From positions 1-39,798 of the forward strand of contig DASXUA010000009.1 in the NCBI GenBank assembly GCA_036505095.1: DNA of 39,798 nucleotides, written 5' to 3'. The stretch comes from Phycisphaerae bacterium (GTDB taxonomy: Bacteria > Planctomycetota > Phycisphaerae > UBA1845). Shown here piece by piece: positions 4,038 to 39,044 of the stretch (its first letter is position 1; each line of letters starts with the position of its first letter). Below the pieces are notes generated by a model. It was not told where the DNA came from. It did not search any database and was given only the letters and a program-made list of their open reading frames with translations. The position numbers and the translations under genes were made by a program.

Positions 4038-5330
4038 ATGCAGATCCGTCGTTGGTCAGCTTTTGCGGCTTTTGTGACCGTCGTTGCATTGAGCGCGAGC
4101 GCTTACGGGCAGATCGCGCTCAACCCCGGCTCGATCATCTGGCTGTCGCTGCGCGGCACCGATAACGTCGTGGGCTTTGCGCCGGCCGGCATTTCTTCGC
4201 TGCCGGCCAACGGCACGCTCATGCCCATGGCCGTCGGGGCCAGCGCCAGCGCCGCGTACGATTTCTCCAGCGCTGCTTTCAACGTTAACAACGCGCAGTT
4301 CGCACTGAGCGCGTCGAATGGCGTTTCGAGCTCGGCGGATCTTTATGGGCAGATCAACTTCACCGCCACGACGGCGGTGCCGTGGAACCTGGCTGGCTCG
4401 CTGAGTTGGATGGGCAACTGGGCCAATGGCGTGTCGCTCTTCGCGCGACTGCAGGACCTGACGACTGGCAGCGACGTGACGCTGCACAACTATGCGTCGG
4501 CGGGTGTGCTCTCGTCGGTGACGCTGACGGTCGGCAGCGGCGGCGGCAACTCGATGAACGTGATCGGCCCGACCTCCGGCACGCTGACCGCCGGGCATGC
4601 CTATCAATACACGCTCGAGTTGGCGGCCGACTCCAACCCGTACAGCCCGCAGACCGGCATGGCGATGGGCAATCTGTCGCTGAGCTTCGGCACGCAGACC
4701 GTCACGATCACCGCGGCCAACCCTCCGGCGCCCGCGGGCAATCCCTATCAACCCGGCCAGATCTTCACTGACGTCCTGGACACGGGCAGCGGACCAACCG
4801 TGACGGCCGGCATCGGCGCGCCCGGCACGCTCGATGAGGGGCCCATCAGCTACAGCCCGATTCACGTGACTTTCAGCGGCGCACCCGTACCGCCGCCGGC
4901 GCCGGACAATGTTGTTGTGGGTTGCGTGGGCGGATCGCTGCCCTGCCCGACGATCACGGCCATCAGTCCGGGGCCCGGCGCGAATGAGTATGCGATCAGC
5001 ATAAGCGGCGGGATGCCACCGCTTTCCTGCATGACGTTCATCTTCACGGGGAACGCCGCCGGTCAACGGCTGCATTACTACTCCAATCCCGGCAATTTGA
5101 ACCTGGATTCCTTCGGCAGCACCACGCAAGACGTGCTGTTCCTGATCCAGAACATCAACGACGGCTCCGCCAACCTGCCGGAGAACCTGGCGCGCTTCAA
5201 CGTCAACCGCAGCCACCTGCAACCTCCGCACGTGAATACTCAGGACGTGCTGCGGGTGGTGCAGCTTCTGAACGGCGTCAACACCACGCAGGTATTCAAC
5301 GGCACGCACGCCGCGGCGTGTCCGCCGTAG
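4038..5330 (+). CDS. Secreted protein of unknown function with C-terminal dockerin-like repeats
   Basis: GGAGAG Shine-Dalgarno sequence 5 nt before the ATG at 4038. Signal peptide MQIRRWSAFAAFVTVVALSASAYGQ. Ser/Ala/Gly/Thr-rich body. The C-terminus carries two similar segments (TTQDVLFLIQNINDG / NTQDVLRVVQLLNG). The annotated ORF start at 3894 is probably too far upstream. Confidence 0.65.
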   Translation: MQIRRWSAFAAFVTVVALSASAYGQIALNPGSIIWLSLRGTDNVVGFAPAGISSLPANGTLMPMAVGASASAAYDFSSAAFNVNNAQFALSASNGVSSSADLYGQINFTATTAVPWNLAGSLSWMGNWANGVSLFARLQDLTTGSDVTLHNYASAGVLSSVTLTVGSGGGNSMNVIGPTSGTLTAGHAYQYTLELAADSNPYSPQTGMAMGNLSLSFGTQTVTITAANPPAPAGNPYQPGQIFTDVLDTGSGPTVTAGIGAPGTLDEGPISYSPIHVTFSGAPVPPPAPDNVVVGCVGGSLPCPTITAISPGPGANEYAISISGGMPPLSCMTFIFTGNAAGQRLHYYSNPGNLNLDSFGSTTQDVLFLIQNINDGSANLPENLARFNVNRSHLQPPHVNTQDVLRVVQLLNGVNTTQVFNGTHAAACPP

Positions 5331-5419
5331 CAGGCTCGCTCCAGCCGATCCGTCACACACGCGGTCATCGACAACCGTTTGTCTTGGACCGCGCGCGGCA
5401 TCGCCGTTAGCATGGAACG

Positions 5420-6247
5420 ATGTCCCCGTCTGCGGAACTTCAGCAGATGCTGGCGCTGGCTACTCGCCTGGCCGTCGAGGGCGGACGGATTGCGCGGGCA
5501 CGGCTGGGCACGGCGCGGGCCACGCGCAAGCTGGATGACAGCGAGGTCACCGATGTCGATGTGGCGATCGAGACGTACGTGCTGGAAGCCATCGGCGAAG
5601 TCTACCCGCAACACGCCGCGCTGTGCGAAGAGGGCGTTCAGGCCGGGGTCAAGGGAAAGGCGGGCGAAGCCGAATTCTGCTGGGTGATCGATCCGCTGGA
5701 TGGCACGCGCAATTACATCCGGCAGCTTCCCATCTTCTGCACCTCGATCGCGGTCCTGCAGCATGGCGCTCCGCTGATCGGTGTCATTCATTCGCCAATG
5801 ACCGATCAGACGTTCACGGTGCTCGAGGACGGACCGGTCCGCGGTGCGACCGGCATGCTCCGCGCGAGCGCGCGTCTGTTGGATCGCGACGCGCTACTGG
5901 GCGTGCCGACCGGCCGGCATCGCCCTTCCGTGAAGGTCGTTCAGGCCTGGGCCGAGAAATGGGTGCTGCGCAACCTGGGCTCGACGGCTCTGCACCTGGC
6001 ACTGGTCGCGTCGGGCGCGCTCGACGGGGCGTTTTGTTGCGAGTGCAAGCTGTGGGACATCGCGGCCGGCGCGCTACTGATCGAGCGCGCCGGCGGCGTC
6101 TGCACCGATTTTGAAGGGCGGTCGCTGTTTCCATTTCCGCTGGGTAGGTATCGCGGTGAAGATACGCCGGTTCTAGCCGCCGGCCCGAACGTACACGCGG
6201 AGCTACTTAAGAGCATGCGGGCGGCGCTGGTGAGTGCTGAGCGGTGA
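5420..6247 (+). CDS. Inositol monophosphatase family protein (SuhB/CysQ/HisN-like)
   Basis: Both family signatures are present: WVIDPLDGTRNY and WDIAAGALLIERAGG. Confidence 0.85.
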   Translation: MSPSAELQQMLALATRLAVEGGRIARARLGTARATRKLDDSEVTDVDVAIETYVLEAIGEVYPQHAALCEEGVQAGVKGKAGEAEFCWVIDPLDGTRNYIRQLPIFCTSIAVLQHGAPLIGVIHSPMTDQTFTVLEDGPVRGATGMLRASARLLDRDALLGVPTGRHRPSVKVVQAWAEKWVLRNLGSTALHLALVASGALDGAFCCECKLWDIAAGALLIERAGGVCTDFEGRSLFPFPLGRYRGEDTPVLAAGPNVHAELLKSMRAALVSAER

Positions 6248-18624: not shown

Positions 18625-19944
18625 ATGAACGCTCAGCGCTTGATGGTTCTCGGGTTCGGGACGGCCGCCATGTTGGTGGGAAGCGCGCCGTCGCGGGCGA
18701 CGTGGTCGATTGTGCTGGTCGACTCGCAAACGAAAGAGGTGGCGATCGCCTCCGTCACCTGCCTGAACAATTTCGATCTGCTGGCGCTGACTCCGGTGAC
18801 GCTGGTCGGGATCGGGGCTGGCGTCGTCCAGGCGGCGGGCGACTTTGACGGCATCCGACGGCCGATCATTCACGACCAACTCTTGATGGGCACACCGCCG
18901 GCGCAGATTTTGACCATTCTGGCACAAGTGCCCGGGCACCAGCAGCGCCAATATGGGATTGTGAATGCGGTCGGGCAGGCGGTGACGTTCACCGGCACCC
19001 AGAACGGACAGTGGGCCGGCGGAGTGACGGGCAATATCGGGACGCTCTATTACGCCGTTCAGGGCAACGTATTGGCCGGCGGCTGCGTCGTGTCGGCCGC
19101 CGTCAGCGCGCTGCAGAACACGAGTGGCGACGTGCCGGCGAAGCTGATGGCCGGGATGCAGGCGGCCCGCATGGCCGGCGGCGATGGACGCTGCTCGTGC
19201 TCCCCGAATAACCCTGCCGGATGCGGCTGTCCGCCGCCGGCCTTCGTGAAGTCTGGACACATCGGATACATGGTGACGGCGCGCATCGGGGATACCGATG
19301 ACCCGATCTGCAATGTGAACGGCTGCTCCGACGGCTTGTATTTCATGAAGTTCGACGTGGCCTTCCAGCCGAGCAGCGCGCCCGATCCCGTGGTGCAGCT
19401 CCAGAACCTGTTCGATGCGTGGCGCGCAAATCTGGTCGGAAGGCCGGATGCGATTCAATCGACCGCGGTGTTCGATGTGGCGAGCCTGCCGCCGAATGGC
19501 ACGGCGACCGCGAACTTGACCGTTGTCTTGCGCGACTGGCAAGGGCTACCGATCAGCGTGCCGATTCAGAGCGTTGCCTACGGACACGGCCCCGGGACGG
19601 CCGGCAGCTCGACGATTGGACCATTGGTCGACCTGGGTGGCGGCATGTATAGCATCACCATCACGGCCGGAACGATCATCGGCACCGACCATTTCCGTAT
19701 CACCGTGAATGATGGCATTCGACCGGTGACGCTGATGCCCGATCCGATCCTGAATATCCGCTTCGGTGATTTCGGCGGCGACGGCGACGTCGATCTGACG
19801 GAGTACGCGACCTTCGCCGCCTGCCTGAGTGGTCCGACCGCGACCGTGAGCGACGATTGTTCGGCGGCCGATCTGGACGGGGATGCGGATGCGGATCTGA
19901 AAGAGTGCGCGGCGTTTGGCGTTAGTTTCACCGGCGCGCCGTAA
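18625..19944 (+). CDS. Secreted protein with DUF1028-like (Ntn-hydrolase-like) N-terminal domain, Ig-like middle region and dockerin/EF-hand-like C-terminus
   Basis: Signal peptide ends ...APSRA. It is followed by TWSIVLVDSQTKEVAIASVTC, which resembles the DUF1028 N-terminal T-[FW]-S-I-V motif (recalled from memory). The C-terminus reads GDFGGDGDVDLTEY...ADLDGDADADLKE. Confidence 0.6.
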   Translation: MNAQRLMVLGFGTAAMLVGSAPSRATWSIVLVDSQTKEVAIASVTCLNNFDLLALTPVTLVGIGAGVVQAAGDFDGIRRPIIHDQLLMGTPPAQILTILAQVPGHQQRQYGIVNAVGQAVTFTGTQNGQWAGGVTGNIGTLYYAVQGNVLAGGCVVSAAVSALQNTSGDVPAKLMAGMQAARMAGGDGRCSCSPNNPAGCGCPPPAFVKSGHIGYMVTARIGDTDDPICNVNGCSDGLYFMKFDVAFQPSSAPDPVVQLQNLFDAWRANLVGRPDAIQSTAVFDVASLPPNGTATANLTVVLRDWQGLPISVPIQSVAYGHGPGTAGSSTIGPLVDLGGGMYSITITAGTIIGTDHFRITVNDGIRPVTLMPDPILNIRFGDFGGDGDVDLTEYATFAACLSGPTATVSDDCSAADLDGDADADLKECAAFGVSFTGAP

Positions 19945-19948
19945 GGCG

Positions 19949-19986
19949 CATGATTGATTTGACAACTGCGAATCATGTGCTATGTT
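19949..19986 (+). promoter_or_regulatory. Sigma70-like promoter with flanking 7-bp inverted repeat
   Basis: -35 TTGACA at 19959-19964, a 16-nt spacer, and an extended -10 TGcTATGTT at 19978-19986. This is the most AT-rich patch of the window. CATGATT (19949-55) and AATCATG (19971-77) bracket the -35. Confidence 0.5.
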
Positions 19987-19995
19987 ATAGATGTG

Positions 19996-20073
19996 ATGAA
20001 TTGTTCGAGCTCATGCAGTAGTTCCGCCAGCGGCCCAGAGGGTCGAACGGAGATACTGCGCGGCGCGCGTTAA
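19996..20073 (+). other. Candidate leader mini-ORF (25 codons): MNCSSSCSSSASGPEGRTEILRGAR
   Basis: The ATG lies about 10 nt after the -10 hexamer and has no Shine-Dalgarno sequence. Seven Ser codons (TCG AGC TCA AGT AGT TCC AGC) and two Cys codons fall within the first 12 codons. Translation is unproven; the transcript could instead be a non-coding RNA. Confidence 0.25.
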
Positions 20074-20101
20074 GTACGAAGTTAACAGCCGAGCAGATTA
20101 G

Positions 20102-20136
20102 AGCCGGTCGATCCGCGCGGGTCGGCCGGTTTTTTT
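20102..20136 (+). terminator. Rho-independent terminator
   Basis: 11-bp GC-rich stem (20104-20114 ccggtcgatcc paired with 20119-20129 gggtcggccgg, including 2 G-U pairs), GCGC tetraloop, then seven T residues (20130-20136). Confidence 0.8.
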
Positions 20137-20191
20137 GTTGCGCCGGGAAGACAACGAGCAGCGTGGCTCGTGCGGATGGCCTGCGCGCTGC

Positions 20192-20276
20192 GGAGGGTGT
20201 TGTCGCTGTGGAGCGACCGCCGTCTCGAAAACGGATCGAGGCCATTGCGCCTGGGGTTCAACTCCTCCGCCCTCCG
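20192..20276 (+). tRNA. tRNA-Ser (anticodon CGA), non-canonical Sec/allo-tRNA-like cloverleaf
   Basis: 85 nt: GGAGGGTG-TT-GTCGCT-GTGG-AGCGAC-C-GCCGT-CTCGAAA-ACGGA-(17-nt variable arm)-GGGG-TTCAACT-CCTC-CGCCCTCC-G. Eight contiguous acceptor pairs, G at position 8, 6-bp D-stem with 4-nt loop, 4-bp T-stem, discriminator G. Anticodon CGA at 20226-20228. Confidence 0.8.
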
Positions 20277-20318
20277 AATGCCCGCGGGTTTGAACGTGCG
20301 GTCTGGCCCGGTAACTGA

Positions 20319-20403
20319 GGAAGCCGAAGTGGGTGTGGACCCACCACCGCCTGCTAAGCGGTCGGCGCATGCGTGGCGCGCGGTTCGACTCCGCCGGCTT
20401 CCG
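20319..20403 (+). tRNA. tRNA-Ser (anticodon GCU), non-canonical Sec/allo-tRNA-like cloverleaf
   Basis: 85 nt: GGAAGCCG-AA-GTGGGT-GTGG-ACCCAC-C-ACCGC-CTGCTAA-GCGGT-(17-nt variable arm)-GCGG-TTCGACT-CCGC-CGGCTTCC-G. The architecture matches the upstream tRNA, and the D-stem changes are compensatory relative to it. Anticodon GCT at 20353-20355. Confidence 0.8.
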
Positions 20404-20493
20404 TGCGGTGCAGATGCTATTTGGCCCAAGCCTCTGTGCGTGTAGAATGCTCCCGCCCAATAGGAGTTTCGACAGGTCGGGCGGAGGCGCAAT

Positions 20494-20979
20494 GTGCGGG
20501 TTCTGAGCGAATTATCCGAGCAAGGCCCCGAGCGACCCATTCGCGTACCGGTCTCCCAAGAGAATCCAGACGGGATCTGGGTGACCGGCGTTGCCGAGAT
20601 CCTGACGGCGCACATGGAAGAGACCCGCGTCGCCGGACTGGGAATAGCCCGGATTTCACGACTCGATGGAGTATCGACTTGGTTGCCCGAGGGCGACGAA
20701 GTCTACTTCAGAACCGCTCCCGACGAACACACACTCGAGGCTGTGCGCAAGCCAGAACCGGCCGACTACCAGCACTTTCGGCTGCCCGTCTGGATTCAAG
20801 ATCCCGAGATTCCAAGTTGCTGTGAGCGCCCGATGATGTTCGTTGGCCAACTTGATGATAACTTACTCTGCAATCAATGGCCACCGGACGCACGACTCTG
20901 GTGGCACGATGCGAACAGTTTTTATGTGTTCACCTGTCCGCAATGCTTGGGCGTGAAAGCAGTTGGCCAGCAGTTCTGA
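20494..20979 (+). CDS. Hypothetical protein with Cys-rich C-terminal module (CCERPMMFVGQLD...FTCPQC)
   Basis: GGAGG lies 6 nt before the GTG at 20494. A possible promoter is TTGGCC-N16-TAGAAT at 20421-20448. The C-terminal half loosely resembles the DUF1963/YwqG-type pattern (weak, from memory). Confidence 0.5.
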   Translation: MRVLSELSEQGPERPIRVPVSQENPDGIWVTGVAEILTAHMEETRVAGLGIARISRLDGVSTWLPEGDEVYFRTAPDEHTLEAVRKPEPADYQHFRLPVWIQDPEIPSCCERPMMFVGQLDDNLLCNQWPPDARLWWHDANSFYVFTCPQCLGVKAVGQQF

Positions 20980-21016: not shown

Positions 21017-22627
<1,611 letters not shown>

Positions 22628-38994: not shown

Positions 38995-39044
38995 GGGAGG
39001 GTGAGGCTCCTGCCGAGCTGGTTCGGCGGGAGCCTCACCCTCCC
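38995..39044 (-). terminator. 16-bp perfect hairpin between hpf and ptsN (terminator or processing site, no U-tract)
   Basis: gggagggtgaggctcc (38995-39010) and ggagcctcaccctccc (39029-39044), with an 18-nt loop. It begins 5 nt after the hpf stop codon. Confidence 0.45.

Follow-up and report, generated by a model that had tools for sequence, protein, structure and literature searches.

What is transcribed between the gene for a DUF1028/Invasin_D3 protein and two serine tRNA genes in an uncultured planctomycete, and does it govern the tRNA genes that follow? The question concerns positions 19,949 to 20,136 of contig DASXUA010000009.1 (Phycisphaerae bacterium, assembly GCA_036505095.1), whose 39,798 nucleotides (nt) were analyzed as a whole and are called the window here. 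In this segment, a promoter, a short open reading frame (mini-ORF) rich in Ser and Cys codons and an intrinsic terminator precede tRNA-Ser(CGA) and tRNA-Ser(GCU). A sequence-only reading had proposed that the element is a leader-peptide attenuator controlling the two tRNA genes and had allowed, as a caveat, for a stand-alone small RNA (sRNA) gene. All the sequence features listed in that reading were recovered at the positions given for them. Our analysis suggests a small stable-RNA operon in which this segment, as a conserved leader RNA, precedes tRNA-Ser(CGA) and tRNA-Ser(GCU), with an attenuator as the most likely form of the leader. The proposed mechanism is viable and somewhat strengthened, though not established.

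Conservation was assessed against locus L108 (JGI 3300036859), the one true orthologous locus found, which comes from a related uncultured Phycisphaerae-like planctomycete; all conservation statements below are comparisons of these two species. The order in L108 matches that of the window: DUF1028 gene, promoter, element, tRNA-Ser(CGA) and tRNA-Ser(GCU). At four-fold degenerate sites of three flanking genes, 38-57% of positions differ between the two. Within the element, the first 33 transcribed nt are 94% identical, RNA positions 68-81 (counted, like all RNA positions here, from 19993) are 93% identical in a block whose end is exactly the TAA stop codon of the mini-ORF, and the terminator is 97% identical, with T6 in L108. 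The stretch right after TAA (20074-86) shows 29% identity and one indel. It is followed by a block at 20087-20097 that is 91% identical, flanked by this near-neutral stretch on one side and by a 6-nt linker of 67% identity on the other. The inter-tRNA spacer is 51% identical. Block identities of 91-97% against a silent divergence of 38-57% indicate that the element is functional and exclude a chance juxtaposition of its parts. Taken together, and as far as divergence can tell, the element is real, conserved and functional, and is under strong purifying selection in the relative.

The signals that bound the element are clear in both species. In a consensus scan, the promoter TTGACA/TATGTT scored 10/12 with its extended -10 (16-nt spacer between TTGACA and TG); it was the best promoter-like site within 2.5 kb and among the best of the whole window, in line with the earlier claim that TTGACA-N16-TGcTATGTT is the only good promoter nearby. 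The promoter block is 84% identical in L108, with intact hexamers and 4 of 16 spacer bases changed. Sequence conservation then starts at 19992-93 (GTGATGAATTG, 11/11 identical), next to the predicted transcription start, while 19989 and 19991 differ. At the other end, an intrinsic terminator stands between the mini-ORF and the tRNA genes, as expected of a leader-peptide attenuator, and the strong hairpin with seven T residues described earlier was recovered by scan and fold (stem 20100-20133, T run 20130-36). No sigma-70-like promoter was recognized by the consensus scan at 20137-20190, between the terminator and the first tRNA, in the window or in L108, which agrees with the earlier statement that no separate promoter is visible there. 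An extracytoplasmic function (ECF)-type or sigma-70 promoter in this spacer was also rejected on manual reading of the alignment, because the spacing is wrong and a 3-nt indel falls there.

The mini-ORF holds 7 Ser and 2 Cys in codons 1-12, the Ser codons being four AGY, one TCG, one TCA and one TCC, just as had been counted before. The idea that AGT, TCA and TGT are rare in this genome was upheld by codon usage: AGT and TCA account for 9% and 5% of Ser codons and TGT for 20% of Cys codons, with a GC content at third codon positions (GC3) of 78%. Among the 777 ATG-started open frames of the window, the mini-ORF itself is the only one with at least 7 Ser in codons 1-12. The predicted transcription start G19993 sits 3 nt 5' of the ATG, so that GUG-AUG lies in frame at the 5' end of the RNA. 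In L108, the orthologous peptide is MNCSCSCSSSIGGPSGRAEILRGAS, with length and TAA unchanged. Conservation of the Ser run in relatives had been named as a check, and it holds in part: Ser codons 4, 6, 8, 9 and 10 and Cys codons 3 and 7 are kept, but two Ser codons are lost. Three of the five conserved Ser codons (codons 4-10: UCG, UCA, AGU-AGU and UCC) would be decoded by the two downstream tRNAs.

For the predicted RNA (19993-20136, ~144 nt), the folding energy is -64 kcal/mol (z=-4.2); its L108 counterpart reaches -73 kcal/mol (z=-5.0). The shared fold consists of a short 5' tail, a closing helix P1, a long hairpin P2, a variable linker and the terminator. None of the 34 paired bases of P2 has changed; all 3 apical-loop bases (AGA in the window, GUC in L108) and the internal-loop bases differ. 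The 5' strands of P2 (20014-20036) lie under codons 7-14, and its 5' half bears Ser codons 8-10. Of 23 substitutions between the species, 21 fall in the 64 unpaired positions and 2 in the 80 helix positions (Fisher p=8e-7, with the consensus structure derived in part from the same two sequences). Both helix substitutions change G·U to G-C; one lies in P1 and the other at the base of the terminator stem. The helices (2/80) diverge less than the adjoining tRNAs (4-8%), as is expected where bases serve more than one pairing. The P1 5' strand (RNA 9-19) can pair with 95-104, forming P1, or alternatively through 11-18:71-78 (window 20003-20010 with 20063-20070; L108 5158-5165 with 5218-5225). Three L108-specific substitutions (U12C, A16U and C76A) raise this alternative helix from 6/8 to 8/8 pairs, which may point to a further switch of conformation or be coincidental. 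A further hairpin, P3 (20069-20086), was rejected as a real helix: it is window-specific, with only 2/5 pairs kept in L108.

We then compared the pairings of the proposed switch, checking both pair by pair. The candidate antiterminator strand at 20040-50 (segment 2) pairs with the terminator 5' arm at 20104-14 (segment 3) at 10/11 positions in both species, the single change hitting the mismatch position, and 20003-08 (segment 1) pairs with 20043-48 at 6/6 positions in the window; both counts are as first described. The 2:3 duplex has an energy of -15.1 kcal/mol and is better than dinucleotide shuffles (p=0.012 in the window, 0.0035 in L108). In a purely thermodynamic footprint model, RNA 1-46 was masked, as by a ribosome stalled at Ser codons 8-10. 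With the terminator 3' arm absent, RNA 48-58 then paired with the terminator 5' arm in both species. When the RNA was unmasked, or the ribosome stood at the stop codon, the terminator 5' arm stayed free and the terminator formed, again in both species. In this model the attenuator geometry is coherent and trp-like. The 1:2/2:3/3:4 layout that had been suggested therefore stands in its switching part, as footprint folding frees segment 2 in both species, but not in its sequestering part: the long P2 hairpin (20014-20060), not the 6-bp 1:2 helix, locks segment 2 away. In L108, the 2:3 pairing keeps its 10/11 pairs, whereas in the 1:2 helix one pair is lost and another changes in a compensatory way (U:A→C:G). 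The same U→C also turns a P1 G·U into G-C, so the compensatory change does not discriminate between models.

The reading that we tentatively prefer, with rather less than even confidence, is a ribosome-mediated attenuator in which a leaderless Ser/Cys-rich peptide and a P2/antiterminator/terminator switch would control the two tRNA-Ser genes. Transcription starting at about G19993 would place the mini-ORF GUG/AUG at the 5' end, and translation would be leaderless. By default, or when a ribosome reaches TAA, P2 would form during synthesis and lock 20040-50 away; the terminator would then form and an RNA of ~140 nt would be released. A ribosome stalled on Ser codons 4-10 (UCG, UCA, AGU-AGU, UCC) would cover the 5' strands of P1 and P2, and the freed 20040-50 could pair with the terminator 5' arm (20104-14) ahead of synthesis of the 3' arm. 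RNA polymerase would then read into both tRNA-Ser genes and thereby close a feedback loop on serine-decoding capacity. The leader, once terminated, may double as an sRNA. The Ser-rich frame, unique among 777, and the adjoining tRNA-Ser genes support this reading. Of the attenuator proposed from sequence, the anatomy is thus retained in L108; the 1:2 helix has given way to P2, P1 is left unused and the antiterminator is marginal.

A number of results weigh against such an attenuator, and several of them argue instead for a stand-alone, highly expressed structured sRNA gene that has its own promoter and terminator and merely lies beside the tRNA-Ser genes. We hold this alternative, the caveat of the sequence-only reading, to be about as likely as the attenuator. 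On this account, the mini-ORF and the likeness of 20040-50 to the terminator 3' arm would be coincidences of a conserved, repetitive, GC-rich RNA, and the tRNAs would be transcribed from an unrecognized promoter or by terminator leak. A complete promoter-to-terminator unit bounds the conserved structured RNA, and its changes lie almost wholly outside the helices. Mini-ORF differences by codon position are 6/2/2, compared with 78/43/178 in the DUF1028 gene; third positions are 92% identical, and 6/8 changed codons are non-synonymous, with a concentration at codon position 1. This pattern points to constraint at the RNA rather than the peptide level, and the kept start, stop and Ser codons are therefore not independent evidence for translation. 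The mini-ORF has a GC3 of ~58% against 78% in genes, and the other two reading frames across it are also largely open, so its openness is uninformative. The level of Ser enrichment kept in L108, at least 5 Ser in the first 12 codons, is reached by 9/777 window frames; L108 has lost 2/7 Ser codons (Ser to Cys and Ser to Gly), with two Ser gained elsewhere and 7 Ser overall, and up to four isoacceptors read the Ser codons of the mini-ORF. No Shine-Dalgarno sequence precedes the mini-ORF, and with the transcription start 3 nt from the ATG leaderless translation would be required, from 5'-GUG or AUG.

The structure raises further points on the same side. The 3' strand of P1 is a conserved island that has no role in the attenuator scheme, and the conserved P1 closure fits a closed, stable sRNA. 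The minimum-energy fold of L108 prefers the alternative helix 11-18:71-78 over P1. Neither P2 nor the 2:3 duplex shows double-compensatory covariation between the two species. Some 5-7% of real 105-nt genome segments pair equally well with the terminator arm, which makes the antiterminator complementarity only marginally unusual against the genomic background (p≈0.05-0.07). The full-length minimum-energy fold retains the terminator even when the 5' part is masked, so that any switch effect must be kinetic. The missing tRNA promoter is weak evidence, since the tRNA-Leu gene of the window likewise lacks a clean consensus promoter in the same scan, which captures the promoters of this genome poorly. 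Moreover, no precedent for leader-peptide attenuation of tRNA genes was found in the literature searched, and only two species were compared. Against the sRNA gene, in turn, stands the very strong terminator 54 nt before co-oriented tRNAs for which neither species shows a detectable promoter. No other ATG-started frame of the window has such a Ser/Cys run, which agrees with the identity of the downstream tRNAs, and the conserved block stops exactly at the stop codon. The helices surpass the tRNA stems in conservation without covariation, which suggests more than a simple structural constraint, and neither an Rfam match nor a homolog elsewhere in the collections searched points to a known sRNA class.

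Less probable, and on the whole unlikely, is a leader that acts in cis on the tRNA-Ser operon without a ribosome. Its terminator would stop transcription in part and constitutively, and so fix the sRNA:tRNA ratio, or else a protein, small molecule or RNA would remodel P1/P2 to open the terminator; the candidates are a switch between P1 and 11-18:71-78 and processive antitermination of the Nus/boxA type. Co-orientation and the missing tRNA promoter apply to it equally, RNA 9-19 can pair either way and the L108 fold uses the 8/8 alternative helix, and the extreme stem conservation fits multiple conformations or a bound factor. Read-through of terminators inside a stable-RNA operon has a precedent in E. 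coli rrn (PMC8144298). The 5' UGYUCG (window 20002-20007) resembles the five bases with which rrn boxA begins (UGCUC), but the likeness spans no more than 5 nt. However, no riboswitch or T-box was matched even at E≤10, unmasked co-transcriptional folds leave the terminator arm free, and neither P1 nor the alternative helix overlaps the terminator, which leaves no evident path to an antiterminator without a ribosome. Two further explanations fare much worse. An mRNA for a functional 26-residue Cys/Ser-rich micro-protein is very improbable. ORF, start, stop and length are kept in L108, but the codon-position pattern given above excludes a conserved functional peptide. Its third positions are too well kept beside the silent divergence of the genes; moreover, it lacks a Shine-Dalgarno sequence, and the ORF is not called as a gene in either of the two metagenome annotations retrieved. 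That a promoter-like site, a hairpin and an ORF lie together by chance, without function, is hardly credible: consensus scans do yield false positives, but blocks of 91-97% identity beside adjacent spacers of 29-51%, together with the fold z scores in both species, effectively refute it.

Known RNA classes were also considered and rejected. Covariance models gave no match to signal recognition particle (SRP) RNA, 6S RNA, T-box, riboswitch or any other Rfam family; at the gathering threshold the element had no Rfam match, and at E≤10 the only hit within 19949-20136 was SCARNA18, which is noise (15 bits, E=3.9). The hallmarks of SRP RNA are a helix-8 GNAR loop and an AGCA motif, and that of 6S RNA is a rod with a central bubble; the variable P2 triloop and the lack of an Rfam match set the element apart from both. 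A gene on the minus strand was rejected as well, because minus-strand ORFs overlap the tRNAs and that strand has no T-run.

Ribosome-mediated leader-peptide attenuators include trpL, hisL, pheL, thrL and pheM of pheST. The general mechanism is summarized in PMC4007540 and PMC1183508. The element resembles the trp, his and pheM attenuators in its promoter-proximal short ORF enriched in one amino acid, in the strong intrinsic terminator ahead of co-oriented genes, in a strand that can pair with the terminator 5' arm and is sequestered by a hairpin whose 5' half lies under the regulatory codons, and in a stop codon placed so that this hairpin can re-form behind a non-stalled ribosome. It differs from them in that the targets are tRNA genes rather than amino-acid biosynthesis or aminoacyl-tRNA synthetase genes, that leaderless translation is needed in the absence of a Shine-Dalgarno sequence, that segments 2 and 3 are ~54 nt apart, a distance that includes the additional closing helix P1, and that its Ser codons are mixed in type and interleaved with Cys codons. 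As the target class differs and translation is only predicted, the element should not be filed as a member of this group; at most it is a variant.

Leaderless leader peptides have been predicted for attenuators of Deinococcus deserti (PMC4007540). There, as predicted here, the start codon is at or 1 nt from the transcription start, and the cognate residue is enriched in the short peptide. The D. deserti targets are protein-coding and the transcription starts were mapped by differential RNA sequencing (dRNA-seq; PMC4007540), whereas our element lies in Planctomycetota, its start is predicted and an in-frame GUG stands 3 nt before the AUG. Like rnTrpL of Sinorhizobium meliloti (PMC6614838), the prematurely terminated leader would be a stable structured RNA of ~100-140 nt, although the downstream genes here are tRNAs. 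Such a double role as sRNA could explain the sRNA-like strength of the leader's conservation. With ordinary sRNA genes that end in Rho-independent terminators, the element shares its own promoter, a structured body, a GC-rich terminator with U tail and a narrow distribution; unlike them, it lies directly before co-oriented tRNAs without a visible promoter, carries a 5'-terminal ORF with tRNA-matching bias and has stems more conserved than those of the adjoining tRNAs. A tRNA-related choice between terminator and antiterminator in a 5' leader recalls T-box riboswitches; however, no T-box or Stem I match was found in Rfam at E≤10, the candidate antiterminator has no UGGN bulge, and the targets of T-boxes are genes for synthetases and amino-acid metabolism rather than for tRNAs.

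To our knowledge, ribosome-mediated attenuation has been described only for protein-coding amino-acid and synthetase genes. Bacterial tRNA expression is generally regarded as set mainly at the promoter (growth rate and stringent control) and through processing or decay. If the attenuator reading is true, a codon-specific sensor could tune individual tRNA species by their own decoding performance. The supply of tRNA would then be under direct homeostatic control, the classical mechanism would gain a new class of targets, and Phycisphaerae-type planctomycetes would have their first described regulatory RNA mechanism. If the element is a plain sRNA, it would be a new, strongly conserved and probably highly expressed RNA of an uncultured lineage, of local interest only.

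Table 1. Features of the element and the adjoining tRNA-Ser genes (window coordinates)
Feature	Position	Strand	Remarks
-35 hexamer TTGACA	19959-19964	+	TTGACA in L108, TTGACG in L088
Extended -10 TGcTATGTT (TG 19978-79, TATGTT 19981-86)	19978-19986	+	identical in L108 and L088
Predicted transcription start G, 7 nt past -10	19993	+	placed by spacing
26-codon Ser/Cys-rich mini-ORF, MNCSSSCSSSASGPEGRTEILRGAR then stop	19996-20073	+	ATG 19996, TAA 20071-73; in-frame GUG 19993
P1 5' strand (RNA 9-19)	20001-20011	+	10/10 pairs in both species; one G·U→G-C
P2 long hairpin, three stacked helices (RNA 22-28:62-68, 30-33:57-60, 39-44:48-53)	20014-20060	+	fold of both species
Segment 2, GGGTCGAACGG, apical P2 3' side, candidate antiterminator strand	20040-20050	+	10/11 complementary to terminator 5' arm
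Variable linker	20074-20086	+	29% identity, one indel; starts right after TAA
P1 3' strand, AGCCGAGCAG, conserved island	20087-20096	+	pairs with 20001-11
Intrinsic terminator, 13-15 bp GC-rich stem (20100-20133), GCGC loop, T7 (20130-36)	20101-20136	+	scan and fold
Terminator-to-tRNA spacer, 54 nt	20137-20190	+	72% identity, 3-nt indel
tRNA-Ser(CGA)	20191-20277	+	ARAGORN; 92% identical in L108
tRNA-Ser(GCU)	20319-20403	+	ARAGORN; 96% identical in L108

The DUF1028/Invasin_D3 protein is encoded upstream of the element at 18625-19944 (+) and a 161-aa ORF downstream at 20494-20979 (+), beyond which lies a methylmalonyl-CoA mutase gene at 21017-22627 (-). The best matches of the mutase are metagenome-assembled genomes of Phycisphaera/Planctomycetota (78% and 71% identity), and none of 80 genome loci examined for mutase-based synteny has a tRNA-Ser nearby. 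Synteny via DUF1028 homologs (55-62% identity; L082-L087) and via homologs of the downstream 161-aa protein (L105-L107, L109 and L110) revealed no tRNA, and a query with the C-terminal fragment of the DUF1028 protein gave no closer relative. A tRNA-Ser(CGA) pattern scanned against metagenomes had 0 matches, and an element-derived 18-mer had 15 matches there, every one in unrelated coding DNA. Two viral-contig scans gave 0 matches to the element, BLAST against plasmids and phages gave none, and nhmmer plus blastn across all collected loci matched only the element's own contig (L081). Cluster-member look-ups were the sole source of the relative, yielding L108 and the fragments L088 and L104 of the same species; a third species with the element was not found in the genome, metagenome, viral, plasmid and phage collections searched.

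The two tRNA-Ser genes have features of their own. Both score below the Rfam tRNA gathering cut-off (best match the tRNA-Sec model at 40-42 bits, cut-off 47), and neither encodes CCA. A CGTGCG(G) motif lies ~15-22 nt before the mature 5' end in both tRNA leaders of both species (window 20170-20176 and 20297-20303); the motif might serve in processing or be left over from duplication of a leader-plus-tRNA unit. In L108, tRNA-Ser(CGA) (5348-5434) has an A3·G70 acceptor-stem mismatch (T20273 of the window is G in L108) and a change of U7·G66 to C7-G66. In E. coli, the position of the mismatch has a bearing on Ser identity; here the mismatch may be tolerated or may stem from an assembly error.

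Downstream of the tRNAs, the relative carries a toxin-antitoxin-like two-gene cassette, DUF6932 plus HTH_3, between tRNA-Ser(GCU) and the 161-aa gene (L108 5772-6568; L104 42-916). The window has no such cassette, and the insertion point corresponds to about window 20404-20420; the difference looks like a tRNA-adjacent insertion or a deletion. A promoter-like TTGGCC-N16-TAGAAT (window 20421-20448) precedes the 161-aa gene, and the relative keeps this site as TTGGGC...TAGAAT (L104 925-955) despite the cassette inserted upstream. At L109 812-3511, genes of 137 aa and 153 aa alternate in a tandem array with DDE transposase genes on its flanks, and the 153-aa genes are homologous to the 161-aa ORF of the window. 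Finally, the terminator scan also returned a perfect 20-bp GC-rich inverted repeat without a proper T-run at window 38996-39043 (GGAGGGTGAGGCTCCTGCCG...CGGCGGGAGCCTCACCCTCC).

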